Source: Thermoplasmata archaeon (GTDB lineage Archaea; Thermoplasmatota; Thermoplasmata; Lutacidiplasmatales; UBA184). From it: a DNA stretch of 56,363 bases. Made by a program: the position numbers and the translations under genes. Positions 10,230 to 48,501 of this stretch are shown in pieces. Location: NCBI GenBank assembly GCA_035297125.1, contig DATGZQ010000023.1, positions 1-56,363 on the forward strand, read 5' to 3'. Under the pieces are notes generated by a model. The model did not search any database and had not been told where the DNA came from. It saw only the letters and a program-made list of their open reading frames with translations. Within the stretch, counting starts at the first letter, position 1. Each line of letters opens with the position of its first letter.

Positions 10230-10406
10230 GCCCGGTTCCGGCGGCCCCGCCGCGAGACCGTCCCTCTGCTCCCACGGGTCGCCGATCCAGGCCGGCCTGA
10301 CGCCCCCTTCCCCCGTTCGCGGCGACCCCCGCCCGCGGGAAGGGTGAGGTTTATCCGCTCCGAGGGGTGGCATCGGCCGGCCGCGATCGACCGCGGCCGA
10401 GGGAAG

Positions 10407-11189
10407 ATGCAGGGGAAATACCTCCGAACTCGGATCGACGACCACGTCGGCTACATCGAGATCGGGAAGCCGAAGGCGAACACCTACGACCTCGAGATGA
10501 TGCGAGAGGTCGACCAGGCGGTCGAGGAGCTCCGGTTCGACGAGAACGCGCGAGTGATTGTTCTGACGAGCTCGCTGCCGGGATTCTTCAGCGCCGGCGC
10601 GGACATCGAGATGCTCAAGGCGAGCCACCCCGACTTCAAGGCGATGTTCTGCCTCCACTGCCAGGAGACCCTCGACAAGTTCGCCTCGACTCCCAAGGTC
10701 GTCATCGCGGCGATCAACGGTCACTGCGTCGGCGGAGGGCTCGAGATCGCGCTCGCGTGCGACCTTAGGATGATGGCGAAGGACTCGGGCAAGATCGGAC
10801 TCCCCGAGGTCACGCTGGGCGTGCTTCCCGGGACCGGAGGCACGCAGCGGCTTCCCCGGCTCGTCGGGACGTCCCGCGCGCTCGACATGATGATCACCGG
10901 AAAGCTGCTCACCCCGGACGAAGCGCTGGCCATCGGGCTGGTGAACTACGTCTACCCGAAGGAGTCGTTCGCGAAGGACGTTCAGGCCTACGCGGTCGCC
11001 CTGGCCCACGGACCGGCCCGCGCGGTCAGCCTGATCAAGCGCTCGGTCGTGGAAGGGATCGAGGTTCCGTTGACGGCCGGTCTGGCCCTCGAGCGCGAGC
11101 TCCAGAACCGCCTGTTCATCACGGAAGACGCGAAGGAAGGGCTGGCGGCGTTCGTCGAGAAGCGGAAGCCCAGCTTTAAGGGCCGCTGA
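10407..11189 (+). CDS. Enoyl-CoA hydratase/isomerase (crotonase), aromatic-CoA catabolism-associated type
   Basis: FSAGADI, AINGHCVGGGLEIALACD, GLPEVTLGVLPGTGGTQRL, EDAKEGLAAFVEKRKP. ATG 10407 follows GAGGGAAG, and there is a TTTATC box at 10350. Confidence 0.92.
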   Translation: MQGKYLRTRIDDHVGYIEIGKPKANTYDLEMMREVDQAVEELRFDENARVIVLTSSLPGFFSAGADIEMLKASHPDFKAMFCLHCQETLDKFASTPKVVIAAINGHCVGGGLEIALACDLRMMAKDSGKIGLPEVTLGVLPGTGGTQRLPRLVGTSRALDMMITGKLLTPDEALAIGLVNYVYPKESFAKDVQAYAVALAHGPARAVSLIKRSVVEGIEVPLTAGLALERELQNRLFITEDAKEGLAAFVEKRKPSFKGR

Positions 11190-11215
11190 CGCCTTTCGAA
11201 CCCAACGGTCGCACG

Positions 11216-12043
11216 ATGACGGTTCCCGGAGCGGTCCAGGGGTCTCCCGTCGCGAAGAGCCTGAAGGACGGCGGGACGATCGAGCCCGTCCGCGAGATCC
11301 TGTGGGGCACCTCGCAGGGCGTCCGGAAGTACGAGACCCCCGAGGAGTTCCCGCCGGACATGCGGAAGCTCGTCGTGAAGCTCATGGTCGTCCAGGCGGA
11401 CACCGAGTTCGCCTCCATCCAGCAGCACCGCCCGTGGCTGGACAAGGCGCCGACGCTGGAGGACCGCTGGATCGAGTCCCGCATCATCGCGGACGAATCC
11501 CGCCACGGCCTCCAGGCCTGCCGGATTCTCCGAGAGTTCGGCGAAGAGGGCCAGCGGCTGATCGACGACCTGCTCGTTCGGCGCGAAGGGGATCACAAGC
11601 TGGACGCGTTCAACATGCCGTTCGACCGATGGTCGGACGTCGGGGCGTTCACGTGCTTCGTCGACCGGGTCGGGGTCTACCAGCTGCGTGCCTTTCAGGA
11701 GTGCTCGTTCGGCCCGCTGGCGAGGGCGATGCCGCTGATGCTGAGCGAGGAACAGCTCCACCTGAACTTCGGCGCGAGCGTCCTTCGACGGATGGTCCAG
11801 GACGGACCGAAGTACTATGGATCGAAGAAGGAGGCGCAGGAGTCCGTCCTGAAATGGTACCCCCGCGCGCTCGACATGTTCGGCCACTCGAACTCGGAGA
11901 CGAGCCGCCGCGCGATCGAGTTCGGCCTGAAGCGCTGGACGAACGAGGAAGCCCGCCACCGATACATCGAGGAGACGCGCGCGATCGTGTCGTCGATCGG
12001 GCTCGAGCTCCCTCCTGAGGAGTTCGACCGGCGGGTCCTCTAG
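11216..12043 (+). CDS. Ferritin-like diiron aryl-CoA epoxidase, short BoxB/PaaA-family protein
   Basis: QADTEFAS, DESRH (ExxH), FNMPFDRW, FVDRVG, SFGPLAR, EEQLH (ExxH), KWYPRALDMFG: a complete carboxylate/His diiron ligand set. Confidence 0.8.
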   Translation: MTVPGAVQGSPVAKSLKDGGTIEPVREILWGTSQGVRKYETPEEFPPDMRKLVVKLMVVQADTEFASIQQHRPWLDKAPTLEDRWIESRIIADESRHGLQACRILREFGEEGQRLIDDLLVRREGDHKLDAFNMPFDRWSDVGAFTCFVDRVGVYQLRAFQECSFGPLARAMPLMLSEEQLHLNFGASVLRRMVQDGPKYYGSKKEAQESVLKWYPRALDMFGHSNSETSRRAIEFGLKRWTNEEARHRYIEETRAIVSSIGLELPPEEFDRRVL

Positions 12044-12076: not shown

Positions 12077-13048
12077 TCAGAACAGGTGGTCCTCGACCAG
12101 GCGGGCGGGGCCGCCGGGCGCGGACTCGATCACGGAGGAGACGCTCGCCAGACCCCCGAGCCTCTCCCTGACCGCGGTGACGTCCTGCTGTCGACAATTG
12201 ACGAACACGTTCTCGCCCGCATCGATCGAGAAGTAGGCCTGGGTCCCGGCCTCCCGGAGGGCGAGGACCGCACGGATCACGTCGAGGGTAGCGCCCGACC
12301 AGTAGACCAGGGGCGGGTCGGACGTGAGCATCGTGGCGTGCATGTTGAGCGTGTCCACCTCGGCGAGGCGCGCGACCTCGGTCCCGTTCCGGGCCCGGAG
12401 CGCAGCCCGCATCCGGTCGAGCGCGCCGACGAGGTACTCGAGGCGCGTCGCGAAGAACGGGGAGGTGGCGGTCGTGATCCGCATCCCCTCGGAACTTCCC
12501 ACCTTCTTAGGGCTCTCCCCCACGCCGACCGCTAGGGTCCGGAAGTCGAGGTCGTCCGGCCCGGCCAGGCGGACGGCCACGGAATGGAGATCGTCCCCCG
12601 CGAGCAGTTCCGCGAACCCTCCCGGGATGCTCCGGCTCGCCGACCCGGAGCCGAGCCTCGCGAGACGGGAGAGCTCGGGGAGAGGCATCGCGAGCCCTGC
12701 GGCGGCGACACCCGAGACCGTGAGAGCGGCGAAGCCGGACGCCGACGAGGCGAACCCGACGCCGGGCGGAAAGCCATTCTCGGAGACCACGCGGGCGCGC
12801 ATCTTCGAACCGGCAAGGGCACGGATCCGGTCGAGATGCTTGAACACCCGCGGGTCGTTGGAGGGCCGCTGGTTGAGGACCAAGGAATCGTGGGCGATCG
12901 CCTCCGAGAACTCGACCGTGGTCCGGGTGGTGAGGGCGGCGAGGCAGACGCTGATGCTCCCGTTCGAGGGTACGCGAAGGGCCTCGTCCGTCTTGCCCCA
13001 GTACTTGATCAGTCCCTGGTTGGCGCAGGCGATCGCGGTGGACTTCAG
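12077..13048 (-). CDS. mvaD: (Di)phosphomevalonate decarboxylase, GHMP family
   Basis: QGLIKYWGK, NGSIS, GFASSASGFAA, ARLGSGSASRS, SIDAGENV (catalytic Asp), C-terminal VEDHLF. Homology begins at LKSTAIA, so the start is probably CTG 13048 (see findings). Confidence 0.85.
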   Translation of the reverse strand: MKSTAIACANQGLIKYWGKTDEALRVPSNGSISVCLAALTTRTTVEFSEAIAHDSLVLNQRPSNDPRVFKHLDRIRALAGSKMRARVVSENGFPPGVGFASSASGFAALTVSGVAAAGLAMPLPELSRLARLGSGSASRSIPGGFAELLAGDDLHSVAVRLAGPDDLDFRTLAVGVGESPKKVGSSEGMRITTATSPFFATRLEYLVGALDRMRAALRARNGTEVARLAEVDTLNMHATMLTSDPPLVYWSGATLDVIRAVLALREAGTQAYFSIDAGENVFVNCRQQDVTAVRERLGGLASVSSVIESAPGGPARLVEDHLF

Positions 13049-13049
13049 C

Positions 13050-13574
13050 CTAGATCCCTCCGTTCGCCACGACGTCCACGAGTGGACGGACACGGTCGAC
13101 CATCGCGACCTCCTCCCGGTCCATCTTTTCCCAGCGGTCCTTCGCGACGACGTCCCAGCGGATAGGGTCTACGTCCCTGCGCCGGGCCATCGCCCGCTGC
13201 CGCCGGGTCGCCTCGTCCGTCCGAACCTCGACCACGAGGAGCCGGGCCCCGAGCTCCCGACGGAACCCCTCGACCTCCTCCTTGACCCGGAGACCGTCCA
13301 GCACGACGAGGTCCGACCCCGACCCGCGGATCTTCTCCAGCACCGGCGCGACCCGCCAGGTGGGGTTCTCGGCGACCAGCGAGGCGAACAGCGCCCAGGT
13401 CTCGTCCCGCGACACGGAGAGCCCGCGCTCCTTCGCGACCTCGCGGGTGAGGTCGCCGAGGTCGATGTGGGCGAACCCCTTCGTTCCCAGCAGCTTCGAG
13501 AGCTCGCTCTTTCCCGCGCACGTGTAGCCGGTGAGTCCGATCACGAGGCGGGAGCCTCCTTCGGAAGCGGTCAT
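13050..13574 (-). CDS. P-loop NMP-kinase-fold protein (archaeal dephospho-CoA-kinase-like family), substrate unknown
   Basis: IGLTGYTCAGKS, DLGDLTRE, VVLDGLRVKEE, EATRRQR...RRD. ATG 13574 is preferred over the track's 13730. Confidence 0.78.
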   Translation of the reverse strand: MTASEGGSRLVIGLTGYTCAGKSELSKLLGTKGFAHIDLGDLTREVAKERGLSVSRDETWALFASLVAENPTWRVAPVLEKIRGSGSDLVVLDGLRVKEEVEGFRRELGARLLVVEVRTDEATRRQRAMARRRDVDPIRWDVVAKDRWEKMDREEVAMVDRVRPLVDVVANGGI

Positions 13575-13719
13575 GCGGGTCAGCGTCTCTTCCTCTAGGG
13601 TCCTGAGGCAACCGAGGCGATAGCGTCTGCGAGGCGGAACGGTGGGCGGCTGCCCCCCCACGGCCCGCCCCGTCCGGGGACGGGACAAGCCGTTATGCCA
13701 CCGTCCTCTTCCTTGGGTC

Positions 13720-14217
13720 GTGACACGCAAGGCTTCGGCCGCCGAACCCCGCCCGACCCGCCCGCTGCCGGATCTGTACCACGCCGCCCGACGGGGCGGT
13801 TTTCACCAGACCGTCGGGTTCCGGGTCGTCGTTGCCCAGAGCGGACGCGGCTTCTGCACGGTCGCCGGTCGGGTGAAACGCCAGCACCTGAACATCAATG
13901 GGATTGTGCACGGGGGCGTCTACGCGACGATCCTCGATACCGCGATGGGCGCCGCGGTGCTCTCCTTGTTGACGGAGGAGGAGACGGCCGCGACCACATC
14001 CCTCTACGTGGAGTTCCTGAGCGCTGCCCGGGCCGGGGACACTCTCACCGCACGAGGGCACGTCCTCCGGCGGGGCCGGCACATCGCGTTCGCCGAGGGG
14101 GACCTGTTCGGCGCCGACGGGCACACGCTCAGCCAGGCGCGCGGGACGTGGTACATCTGGTCGGCGGCGGAGACCCCGCGGAGCGTCCGGGCGGCAACGC
14201 GCCGGCGTACGCGCTGA
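13720..14217 (+). CDS. PaaI-family (hotdog) acyl-CoA thioesterase
   Basis: HLNINGIVHGGVYATILDTAMG, TTSLYVEFL, VLRRGRHIAFAEG. Start approximate (GTG 13720). Confidence 0.88.
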   Translation: MTRKASAAEPRPTRPLPDLYHAARRGGFHQTVGFRVVVAQSGRGFCTVAGRVKRQHLNINGIVHGGVYATILDTAMGAAVLSLLTEEETAATTSLYVEFLSAARAGDTLTARGHVLRRGRHIAFAEGDLFGADGHTLSQARGTWYIWSAAETPRSVRAATRRRTR

Positions 14218-48309: not shown

Positions 48310-48501
48310 TCAGTCGATCTCGATGGCGCCGACGGGGCAGGCCTTCACGCAGATCTCGCAGCGGGTGCAGACGCGTTCGTCGAACGTGATGCGCGTCTCG
48401 TCAAGGTAGATACAGTTCAGAGGGCAGATCCCGACGCACGCCCCGCAGTAGATGCAAAGCTGTCCCGAGGACTCGATGTGCAGGCTCTTTTTGCTCGGCA
48501 A
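48310..48501 (-). CDS. 2x[4Fe-4S] ferredoxin
   Basis: CIYCGACVGICP and CTRCEICVKACP. Confidence 0.93.
   Translation of the reverse strand: MPSKKSLHIESSGQLCIYCGACVGICPLNCIYLDETRITFDERVCTRCEICVKACPVGAIEID

Follow-up and report, generated by a model that had tools for sequence, protein, structure and literature searches.

The known coenzyme A (CoA)-dependent aerobic systems that attack an aromatic ring are multi-component. Phenylacetyl-CoA is processed by PaaABC(D)E with PaaG and PaaZ, and the benzoyl-CoA route needs the 475-aa BoxB, BoxA and the two-domain BoxC. Here, we analysed a pair of genes for a 260-aa crotonase and a 275-aa diiron protein in a 56,363-nt contig (DATGZQ010000023.1, assembly GCA_035297125.1), which as a whole is called the window. 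Its host is an aerobic member of the Lutacidiplasmatales, or terrestrial miscellaneous euryarchaeotal group (TMEG), and the assembly is 87% complete. We read the pair, with middling confidence, as a minimal Box-like module of aryl-CoA epoxidase and ring hydrolase that would depend on O2 and use a CoA thioester, most likely an aromatic one.

BoxB is a monomer that works without structural subunits, the action of BoxA on it is only transient, and BoxC co-purifies with BoxB and relieves its product inhibition (review PMC4498308). With these published properties, a reductase-less core of two proteins is plausible. The Lutacidiplasmatales have been described as aerobic, fatty-acid-oxidising soil archaea, with no mention of aromatic catabolism (PMC9287336), and a 2026 survey of the phenylacetic acid pathway has its archaeal cases in Halobacteria only (PMC13186573).

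Our literature search found nothing on BoxB or benzoyl-CoA epoxidase in archaea, nor on the Protein Data Bank (PDB) entry 4MUD in connection with PaaA. A preliminary description of this locus, made by reading the DNA, had stated that no such pathway is described in Thermoplasmata. This agrees with the searched literature, but other Thermoplasmata families also pair long BoxB-allied genes with the same crotonase subtype.

The crotonase gene (10407..11189) and the diiron gene (11216..12043) both lie on the + strand. They are separated by a 26-nt spacer (11190..11215, +) that runs from TGA to ATG and has no AT-rich box, so both genes are probably on one transcript. The crotonase start is taken as ATG 10407 rather than GTG 10344, because the orthologues are 260 aa long. 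A TATA-like box, GGTTTATCCGC, at 10349..10359 (+) about 50 nt upstream of this start may act as the promoter.

The upstream element reads TTTATCC, and the surrounding intergenic DNA is GC-rich, as is the window (about 70% GC), and otherwise unconserved. Of the 12 sibling loci compared, nearly all have a (T)TTATC-type box equally far upstream, and in 10 it is clear. The two-gene unit with its gap, its own TATA box and its product lengths had been correctly described before, as direct reading of the DNA confirms on every point.

Both genes are under purifying selection. In pairwise comparisons with 12 orthologues, dN/dS is 0.08–0.19 for the crotonase and 0.13–0.27 for the diiron protein. The two are adjacent in every locus of the genus that is long enough to show both, and in all of at least 27 Thermoplasmata loci. 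In a survey of 301 genomes of the class, the pair is carried by nearly all genomes of four genera in the window's family, and its distribution across the class is patchy. High conservation was also considered as a sign of housekeeping but was dropped, since the matches above 80% come from one family of closely related metagenome-assembled genomes (MAGs).

Two sibling loci in long-read-type MAGs show apparent frameshifts. The diiron gene appears as three high-scoring segment pairs (HSPs) in different frames at L038:6816-7633, and the crotonase gene as two HSPs, 99% identical to the window's, at L058:6001-6781. Assembly indels are more likely here than pseudogenes.

The diiron protein fits Pfam PF05138 PaaA_PaaC over residues 40-268 with 106.9 bits (gathering threshold 28.5). 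Its best NCBIfam match is TIGR02156 PaaA with 112.9 bits, below the cut-off of 280. It is also below the cut-off of TIGR03225 BoxB (83.2 versus 499.1 bits), with residues 41-197 on model positions 96-257. The databases (JGI/NCBI) name it PaaA, '1,2-phenylacetyl-CoA epoxidase subunit A' or 'phenylacetic acid catabolic protein'. With 275 of 475 aa it has 58% of the BoxB length, in line with an earlier estimate of about 60%.

All six diiron ligand positions are kept as E64, E94/H97, D150 and E179/H182 in the pattern E, ExxH, D, ExxH. They align with BoxB and with E42, E72/H75, D126 and E155/H158 of E. coli PaaA, which we take to be the ligands of Grishin et al. 2011. The motifs QADTE (60-64), APTLED (78-83), DESRH (93-97), LLVRREGD (119-126), AFN (131-133), VDRVG (149-153) and SFGPLAR (164-170) were all located. 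The references for their alignment were Mycetohabitans BoxB, P0183 (a BoxB with 672 bits on TIGR03225) and E. coli PaaA.

Four patterns, QxDTExAS, FG..G...LL.RR.G...AFN, DRxGxxQL and PLAR...ML.EE..H, are common to the window protein and BoxB but not to PaaA. The window has QADTEFAS for QGDTEPAS of BoxB, DRVGVYQL for DRDGKFQL and PLARAMPLMLSEEQLH for PLARTTRFMLTEEAHH. Moreover, FGEEGQRLIDDLLVRREG..AFN matches FGRDGREEAQALLERRSG..AFN of BoxB with equal spacing, and PaaA has a two-residue deletion there. The direct alignment to verified BoxB and to E. coli PaaA thus bears out the earlier remark that these motifs track BoxB better than PaaA.

The AlphaFold (AF2) model of the diiron protein has a predicted ferritin-like fold with pLDDT 93 and pTM 0.88. 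With TM-scores on the query (TMq) and the target (TMt), the modelled fold matches 4MUD at TMq 0.76 and TMt 0.93, BoxB at TMq 0.80–0.81 and PaaA at TMq 0.73–0.75, and PaaC lower at 0.66. In sequence, the best PDB match is 4MUD with 125 bits, with PaaA at 85 and BoxB at 70.

A scan of 1.84 billion representative proteins with the diiron protein yielded no more than 29 clusters at E<1e-30. Outside the window's family, its closest relative is P0121 (47–49% identity). The trees were anchored by E. coli PaaA and PaaC, Mycetohabitans BoxB and the NCBIfam-verified P0183 (BoxB), P0196 and P0239 (PaaA). In a quick tree of 137 sequences, the window protein falls with BoxB at a 97% split, and 4MUD falls with PaaA. 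From 65 sequences, a more careful tree unites the window clade, other short forms (P0121-P0123, P0126 and P0130), the 4MUD clade and all the long BoxB-like proteins in a 99/96 clade, with the PaaA clade outside it.

The long BoxB-like proteins, including true BoxB, make a 100/100 subclade. The window protein is outside this subclade, and its sister relation to it is weak (57/23). Forcing the window clade to join PaaA costs 53.8 log-likelihood units, with p=0.010 in the approximately unbiased (AU) test for this group named post hoc.

Hence, the proposal that BoxB rather than PaaA is the nearer relative of the diiron protein is supported by the 99/96 clade, the AU test of the post hoc group, the motifs, the indel pattern and TMq of 0.80 against 0.74. 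It is nevertheless no member of the BoxB family (83 versus 499 bits). A position inside PaaA/PaaC together with a paaABCD set elsewhere in the genome was looked for, and the tree and the genome searches show neither. The safe statement is that it is a BoxB-allied short form, not PaaA and not BoxB proper. By sequence, it appears as a new variant within the PaaA/BoxB superfamily that is in neither the BoxB nor the PaaA equivalog and is paired with a BoxC-related crotonase.

The crotonase fits PF00378 ECH_1 with 212.3 bits, and its best NCBIfam matches are generic enoyl-CoA hydratase (ECH) models. It has both hydratase-type catalytic Glu residues, in GGGLE113 and LPE134, which by motif presumably correspond to E144 and E164 of rat ECH. 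Among solved structures, the uncharacterised ECH 2PPY of Geobacillus kaustophilus is closest to it (295 bits, 54% identity). It is 37.5% identical to the N-domain of BoxC, with 106 bits over BoxC 39-278. The six other crotonases of the genome reach at most 60 bits there, and the window crotonase is the best of the seven.

The crotonase segment FKAMFCLHCQET at 77-88 resembles WKVNFCKFTNET of BoxC and FKTQFCLFCNET of Geobacillus 2PPY. An unusual FKxxFC..C.ET segment is also common to the window crotonase and 2PPY. The crotonase tree has a 100/99 split. On one side are the window crotonase, 2PPY and other Bacillales ECHs, bacterial ECHs adjacent to aldehyde dehydrogenase (ALDH), diiron-adjacent ECHs and, on a long branch, the BoxC N-domain. 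On the other side are PaaF, PaaG and the six other crotonases of the genome. The segment comparison and the tree grouping agree with the earlier remark that this segment echoes the BoxC N-domain and crotonases of Bacillales paa clusters.

The oxepin-CoA hydrolase alternative type (NF046063, cut-off 300) is not among the 25 best families of the window crotonase, the lowest listed of which has 131 bits. An orthologue in locus L111 (59% identical) scores 117 bits on it. The NF046063 family is without the catalytic Glu, unlike the window crotonase. A menaquinone reading, with the crotonase as MenB and a nearby hotdog protein as DHNA-CoA thioesterase, was dropped because all 25 best NCBIfam matches of the crotonase are enoyl-CoA hydratase/isomerase types.

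Gene contexts of the relatives were examined in eighty loci gathered by crotonase alignment and mapped with reference proteins. The bacterial members of the crotonase subtype sit next to ALDH in paa/box-like clusters. Classical clusters (L060 and L079) have the order PaaA-PaaD-PaaC-ECH-ALDH-PaaJ-PaaG-PaaH-PaaF. Since PaaG and PaaF are separately present, the ECH fills the ring-hydrolase slot, which is the position of the PaaZ hydratase domain. The Bacillales order is PaaH-PaaJ-ALDH-ECH-ligase, or ALDH-ECH-PaaX-PaaA (L071 and L086).

Many Acidobacteriota and Gemmatimonadota (L063-L106, e.g. L069, L074, L084 and L090) have ECH-ALDH-(PaaJ)-PaaG-BoxB-like-PaaH/CoA-transferase. Their BoxB-like gene encodes about 330 aa and scores 232 bits on TIGR03225. 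Neither PaaABCE nor a reductase lies within 6 kb of these clusters. They resemble a cross between the box and paa pathways of a kind not described before.

The short diiron forms are also found in informative places. P0121 (L012:82-4424) is in the order PaaX-4HBT-diiron-3-hydroxyanthranilate 3,4-dioxygenase (3-HAO)-ACMSD-RidA. This order suggests that anthranilate may be turned into 3-hydroxyanthranilate in a CoA-dependent way, through a 2,3-epoxide that re-aromatises. For P0123, a binding protein is followed by an AMP ligase that overlaps the diiron gene. P0124 (GCA_044229145.1) has ALDH-ECH-diiron-second diiron-CoA transferase, with an ECH 53% identical to the window's.

In the Crenarchaeota of the 4MUD clade (L108:6313-11179), the orders are ECH (47% identical)-diiron and diiron-AMP ligase-PaaX, with two divergent short PaaA/C-like genes. 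This locus holds the module in compact form together with a regulator, an archaeal PaaX homologue, and cultured relatives of the lineage exist. No reductase is present in the contexts of P0121, P0123, P0124 and the 4MUD clade. Judged by gene content, the contexts of the other short diiron forms are all apparently aromatic-CoA contexts.

Other Thermoplasmata families have divergent BoxB-allied genes of about 470 aa that score at most 30 bits on the BoxB hidden Markov model (HMM) (L111 and L110:8718-10130). In G155 of the family f27 (L111:8984-11261), such a gene has an AMP ligase upstream and, directly downstream, a crotonase of the same subtype (59% identical to the window's). Examples of the crotonase paired with a BoxB-allied diiron protein are known from Crenarchaeota, from other Thermoplasmata and from bacteria, and they are usually accompanied by a CoA ligase or transferase, PaaX, a thioesterase or an ALDH.

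The Box-like module is favoured because the closest characterised relatives of both genes are in the box system, boxC and boxB have the same order, and the two partners are found together again, across domains, in aromatic-CoA contexts. Also on its side are the two heme-copper oxidases of the host, and the purifying selection on both genes with their conserved promoter box. We infer the substrate class, the epoxidation, the ring opening, the electron donor and the downstream fate; the substrate itself, benzoyl-CoA or other, and the ring cleavage are drawn entirely from the gene contexts of the relatives. As to the proposal of a stripped-down epoxidase with a ring-opening hydrolase, its evolutionary claims hold, but the function it assigns is a prediction from comparative evidence.

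In the proposed mechanism, the diiron protein would first bind the acyl-CoA and, with O2 and two electrons, epoxidise or oxygenate the ring as BoxB does on benzoyl-CoA. The electrons would come from a non-dedicated donor such as a small 2x[4Fe-4S] ferredoxin, and no structural subunit of the PaaB/PaaC type would take part. The co-transcribed crotonase would then add water at the β-carbon and open the oxygenated ring to an aldehyde-CoA, thereby relieving product inhibition of the oxygenase. The crotonase, with its single domain, is related to the BoxC N-domain and to the crotonases that replace the PaaZ hydratase in split paa clusters.

As a third step, a hotdog thioesterase would either free the CoA bound in re-aromatised dead-end products for reuse or release the product. 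Finally, a generic ALDH and β-oxidation enzymes encoded elsewhere would complete the pathway. The ALDHs of the genome are generic. Small 2x[4Fe-4S] ferredoxins of about 75 aa are present in nearly every genome of the genus, and several in the window's genome. One of them in the window, a 75-aa open frame at 48319-48462 (-), matches the 2x[4Fe-4S] N-terminal part of BoxA with 25.8 bits. Such ferredoxins are candidate electron donors for a reductase-less oxygenase.

The window's genome has a single PF05138 gene and therefore no PaaC. No PaaB, PaaC, PaaD, PaaK, PaaX or PaaY was found in it, and for PaaE there is only a 46.6-bit FNR-like match. PaaB is absent from all 31 genomes of the genus as well. 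It had been noted that no BoxA/PaaE reductase, PaaB/C/D or CoA ligase is adjacent to the pair. Indeed none is nearby, and no dedicated ones are found genome-wide or in the 31 genomes of the genus. Likewise, a search of the window's genome for boxA, paaE, benzoate-CoA ligase and paaBCD gave none above the cut-offs.

Several points weigh against the Box-like module, and the first of them are missing partners. The best matches to BoxA (TIGR03224, cut-off 459) in the 31 genomes of the genus have at most 38 bits and are ferredoxin or FNR fragments, and no BoxA/PaaE reductase was identified in the window's genome. The same 31 genomes have no member of the benzoate-CoA-ligase family at the cut-off (best 252 versus 375) and no phenylacetate-CoA ligases. 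The three AMP ligases of the window's genome look like fatty-acid ligases. This genome also has no clear BoxD/PacL (BoxD-type ALDH) orthologue and, by the crotonase tree, no PaaG orthologue. The pair is otherwise among housekeeping genes in this genus.

The proteins themselves add further points on this side. For the short diiron clade, any function is a prediction, and its solved member 4MUD is an orphan structural-genomics entry. Over the whole length, HMM and PDB sequence comparisons favour PaaA and 4MUD over BoxB, because BoxB aligns over the N-terminal two thirds only. The deepest backbone of the trees is weak and 4MUD switched sides between them, so the deepest split is not relied on here.

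The crotonase is single-domain and keeps both hydratase Glu residues. The biochemical role given to the 2PPY-type subtype is itself putative. As noted by Price et al. 2022, ECH-Aa was about 1000 times better on crotonyl-CoA, and the genetic candidate of that study itself belongs to a different, Glu-less subfamily.

Downstream of the pair, a hotdog (4HBT) thioesterase open reading frame (ORF) is at 13642..14217 (+), with 63.5 bits on Pfam 4HBT and 64 bits on TIGR00369. Its true start is probably downstream of 13642, since the orthologues are 155–168 aa long. The 4HBT domain starts about 1.8 kb past the diiron stop. The preliminary description had a PaaI thioesterase about 1.7 kb away; there is a hotdog thioesterase at about this place, but it misses the PaaI cut-off (40.2 versus 118.9 bits on TIGR02286).

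In most loci of the genus, a convergent MVD-like gene separates the pair from the hotdog thioesterase. L052 has no MVD there, its thioesterase being directly next to the diiron gene on the downstream side, and P0121 is also adjoined by a 4HBT gene. The thioesterase is probably a third member of the module with a CoA-recycling or product-releasing role.

The MVD-like decarboxylase gene is at 12077-13093 (-) and scores 233 bits on TIGR01240, above the cut-off. A functional link of the pair to this mevalonate-pathway decarboxylase was rejected: it is convergent, a VOC gene intervenes in some siblings, and L052 has the thioesterase with no MVD between. A P-loop NMP-kinase-fold ORF (AAA_18/AAA_17) at 13050-13730 (-) overlaps the 5′ end of the MVD-like gene. 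At the same place, several sibling loci have no such ORF.

In 7 of about 30 loci of the genus, a VOC/glyoxalase-fold gene (157–193 aa, 22–26 bits on PF00903) lies between the diiron and MVD-like genes, co-directional with the former. These are L033 (8111-8584), L046 (7604-8185), L032, L039, L040, L045 and L056. No homologue of it was found anywhere in the window's genome. It may be an optional third enzyme of the module, e.g. an isomerase or a dioxygenase.

Among the alternatives, the one that survives best is a non-aromatic acyl-CoA module tied to β-oxidation, which we consider unlikely. An acyl-CoA, be it fatty, branched, alicyclic or isoprenoid-derived, would be desaturated or hydroxylated by the diiron enzyme with O2, and the crotonase would hydrate the enoyl-CoA so formed. 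To our knowledge, however, no member of the PaaA/BoxB superfamily acts on an aliphatic acyl-CoA. The genome has seven crotonases, three HADH, thiolases and fatty-acid-type ligases and no aromatic-acid ligase, all in favour of such a module. So are the retained hydratase Glu pair, the best scores on generic hydratase models and the far higher activity on crotonyl-CoA in what is reported of ECH-Aa, together with the predicted fatty-acid oxidation by Lutacidiplasmatales (PMC9287336).

Against this, every informative context of either gene's relatives is aromatic or paa/box-like (PaaX, PaaA/C/D, PaaG, PaaJ, PaaH, BoxB-like and 3-HAO). Moreover, the window crotonase is clearly outside the clade of the six other crotonases of the genome, which are of the β-oxidation type.

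Somewhat less probable still is an aryl-CoA hydroxylase, whose epoxide would re-aromatise to a hydroxyaryl-CoA, e.g. from 2-aminobenzoyl-CoA to 3-hydroxy-2-aminobenzoyl-CoA. The hotdog thioesterase would then release the hydroxy acid, and the crotonase would be auxiliary or have a different role. This fits the P0121 context with PaaX, 4HBT, 3-HAO, ACMSD and RidA, and the 4HBT thioesterase that is kept with the pair in the genus and is directly downstream in L052. Bacillales loci L087 and L088 also combine this crotonase type with 4HBT and PaaX or a ligase. However, the genome has no 3-HAO or ACMSD homologue, and the most tightly linked and most conserved partner, the crotonase, is left without an obvious role. 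Its orthologues, moreover, adjoin ALDH at the ring-opening position.

A canonical PaaA subunit of the PaaABC(D)E phenylacetyl-CoA epoxidase with its partners elsewhere is already effectively refuted and is given hardly any weight. The best NCBIfam match (113 bits), the database names and the modelled fold match of TM 0.74 all say PaaA, but the score is far below the 280-bit cut-off. Also opposed to it are the lone PF05138 gene, the lack of PaaB in the 31 genomes and of PaaD, PaaE and PaaK, and the tree position outside the PaaA clade (AU p=0.010, post hoc group).

Equally improbable is that the pair has no function today and is what remains, in decay or no longer catalytic, of an aromatic cluster gained by horizontal transfer, as the solitary position among housekeeping genes without ligase, reductase or ALDH and the patchy distribution in the class might suggest, but nearly all genomes of four genera have the pair with intact frames, ligands and catalytic Glu, dN/dS of 0.08–0.27 and a conserved promoter box.

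Beyond this locus, we tentatively propose a wider view, to which we give rather less credence than to the Box-like module. The short (225–280 aa) BoxB-allied diiron proteins would be an unrecognised family of minimal aryl-CoA epoxidases or hydroxylases. Their partners would be a single-domain crotonase and general ferredoxins, and they would need neither a dedicated reductase nor a structural subunit. The aerobic CoA-dependent ('hybrid') dearomatisation would thus be present in non-halophilic archaea, the Lutacidiplasmatales and Sulfolobales-type Crenarchaeota. In some lineages, the same chemistry of 2,3-epoxidation and then re-aromatisation would yield 3-hydroxyanthranilate from anthraniloyl-CoA.

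If so, a 275-aa oxygenase and a 260-aa crotonase would be the minimal catalytic core of CoA-dependent aerobic dearomatisation. This would give a function to the orphan structure 4MUD and explain hundreds of 'PaaA' annotations without partner genes. It would also extend aerobic aromatic-CoA catabolism to the abundant soil archaea of TMEG/Lutacidiplasmatales, whose predicted metabolism has so far been without aromatic substrates. If the substrate is aliphatic instead, it would be a new reaction class for the PaaA/BoxB superfamily.

Compared with PaaABC(D)E of E. coli (PDB 3PW1), the window protein shares PF05138, the six ligands, a comparable core size and the C-terminal region. The logic of a CoA-thioester substrate and a PaaI-like thioesterase near the pair are also as in the paa system with its PaaG and PaaZ. 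Unlike that system, the window's genome is without PaaB, PaaC, PaaD, PaaE, PaaK and PaaG, and the protein is outside the PaaA clade.

The split-PaaZ crotonases are the GK1992/2PPY-type ECHs next to a PacL-like ALDH (compare ECH-Aa of Teufel 2011, in the form cited in PMC9007349). The window crotonase shares with the bacterial members 52–62% identity, the FKxxFC..ET segment, both Glu residues and the same clade. The bacterial genes are flanked by ALDH and a full lower paa pathway, whereas the window gene is flanked by the diiron gene only.

4MUD is SSO1313 of Sulfolobus solfataricus, a 235-aa 'ring oxidation complex/phenylacetic acid degradation-related protein' from structural genomics. It is, like the window protein, a short archaeal single-domain form, is its best sequence and fold match and is in the same 99/96 clade, but the two are only about 31% identical. 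The context of the 4MUD clade also has an ECH (47% identical to the window's), and adds an AMP ligase and PaaX. The Crenarchaeota have a second PaaA/C-like paralogue, likely for a heterodimer, as well as the ligase and the regulator, whereas the window has a single copy and none of these.

The last reference is BoxB/BoxC of the aerobic benzoyl-CoA (box) pathway in Azoarcus evansii and Burkholderia (PDB 3PM5 and 2W3P). The window oxygenase differs from BoxB in its length of 275 versus about 475 aa, without the N-terminal extension of about 60–80 residues and the C-terminal insertions of BoxB, and does not fall within the BoxB clade. Where BoxC has two tandem crotonase-fold domains (556 aa), the window crotonase has a single one (260 aa), and the window's genome has no BoxA, BoxD or benzoate-CoA ligase. 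Like the box system, however, the locus has a diiron ferritin-like oxygenase without subunits of the PaaB/PaaC type, with BoxB-type motifs and the same ligand set. Its crotonase-family partner lies immediately upstream, in the order of boxC-boxB, and groups with the BoxC N-domain. The crotonase gene would encode the ring-hydrolysing partner, a member of the 2PPY/'ECH-next-to-ALDH'/BoxC-N-domain subfamily, and the diiron gene a BoxB-allied acyl/aryl-CoA epoxidase of the PaaA/PaaC/BoxB superfamily.

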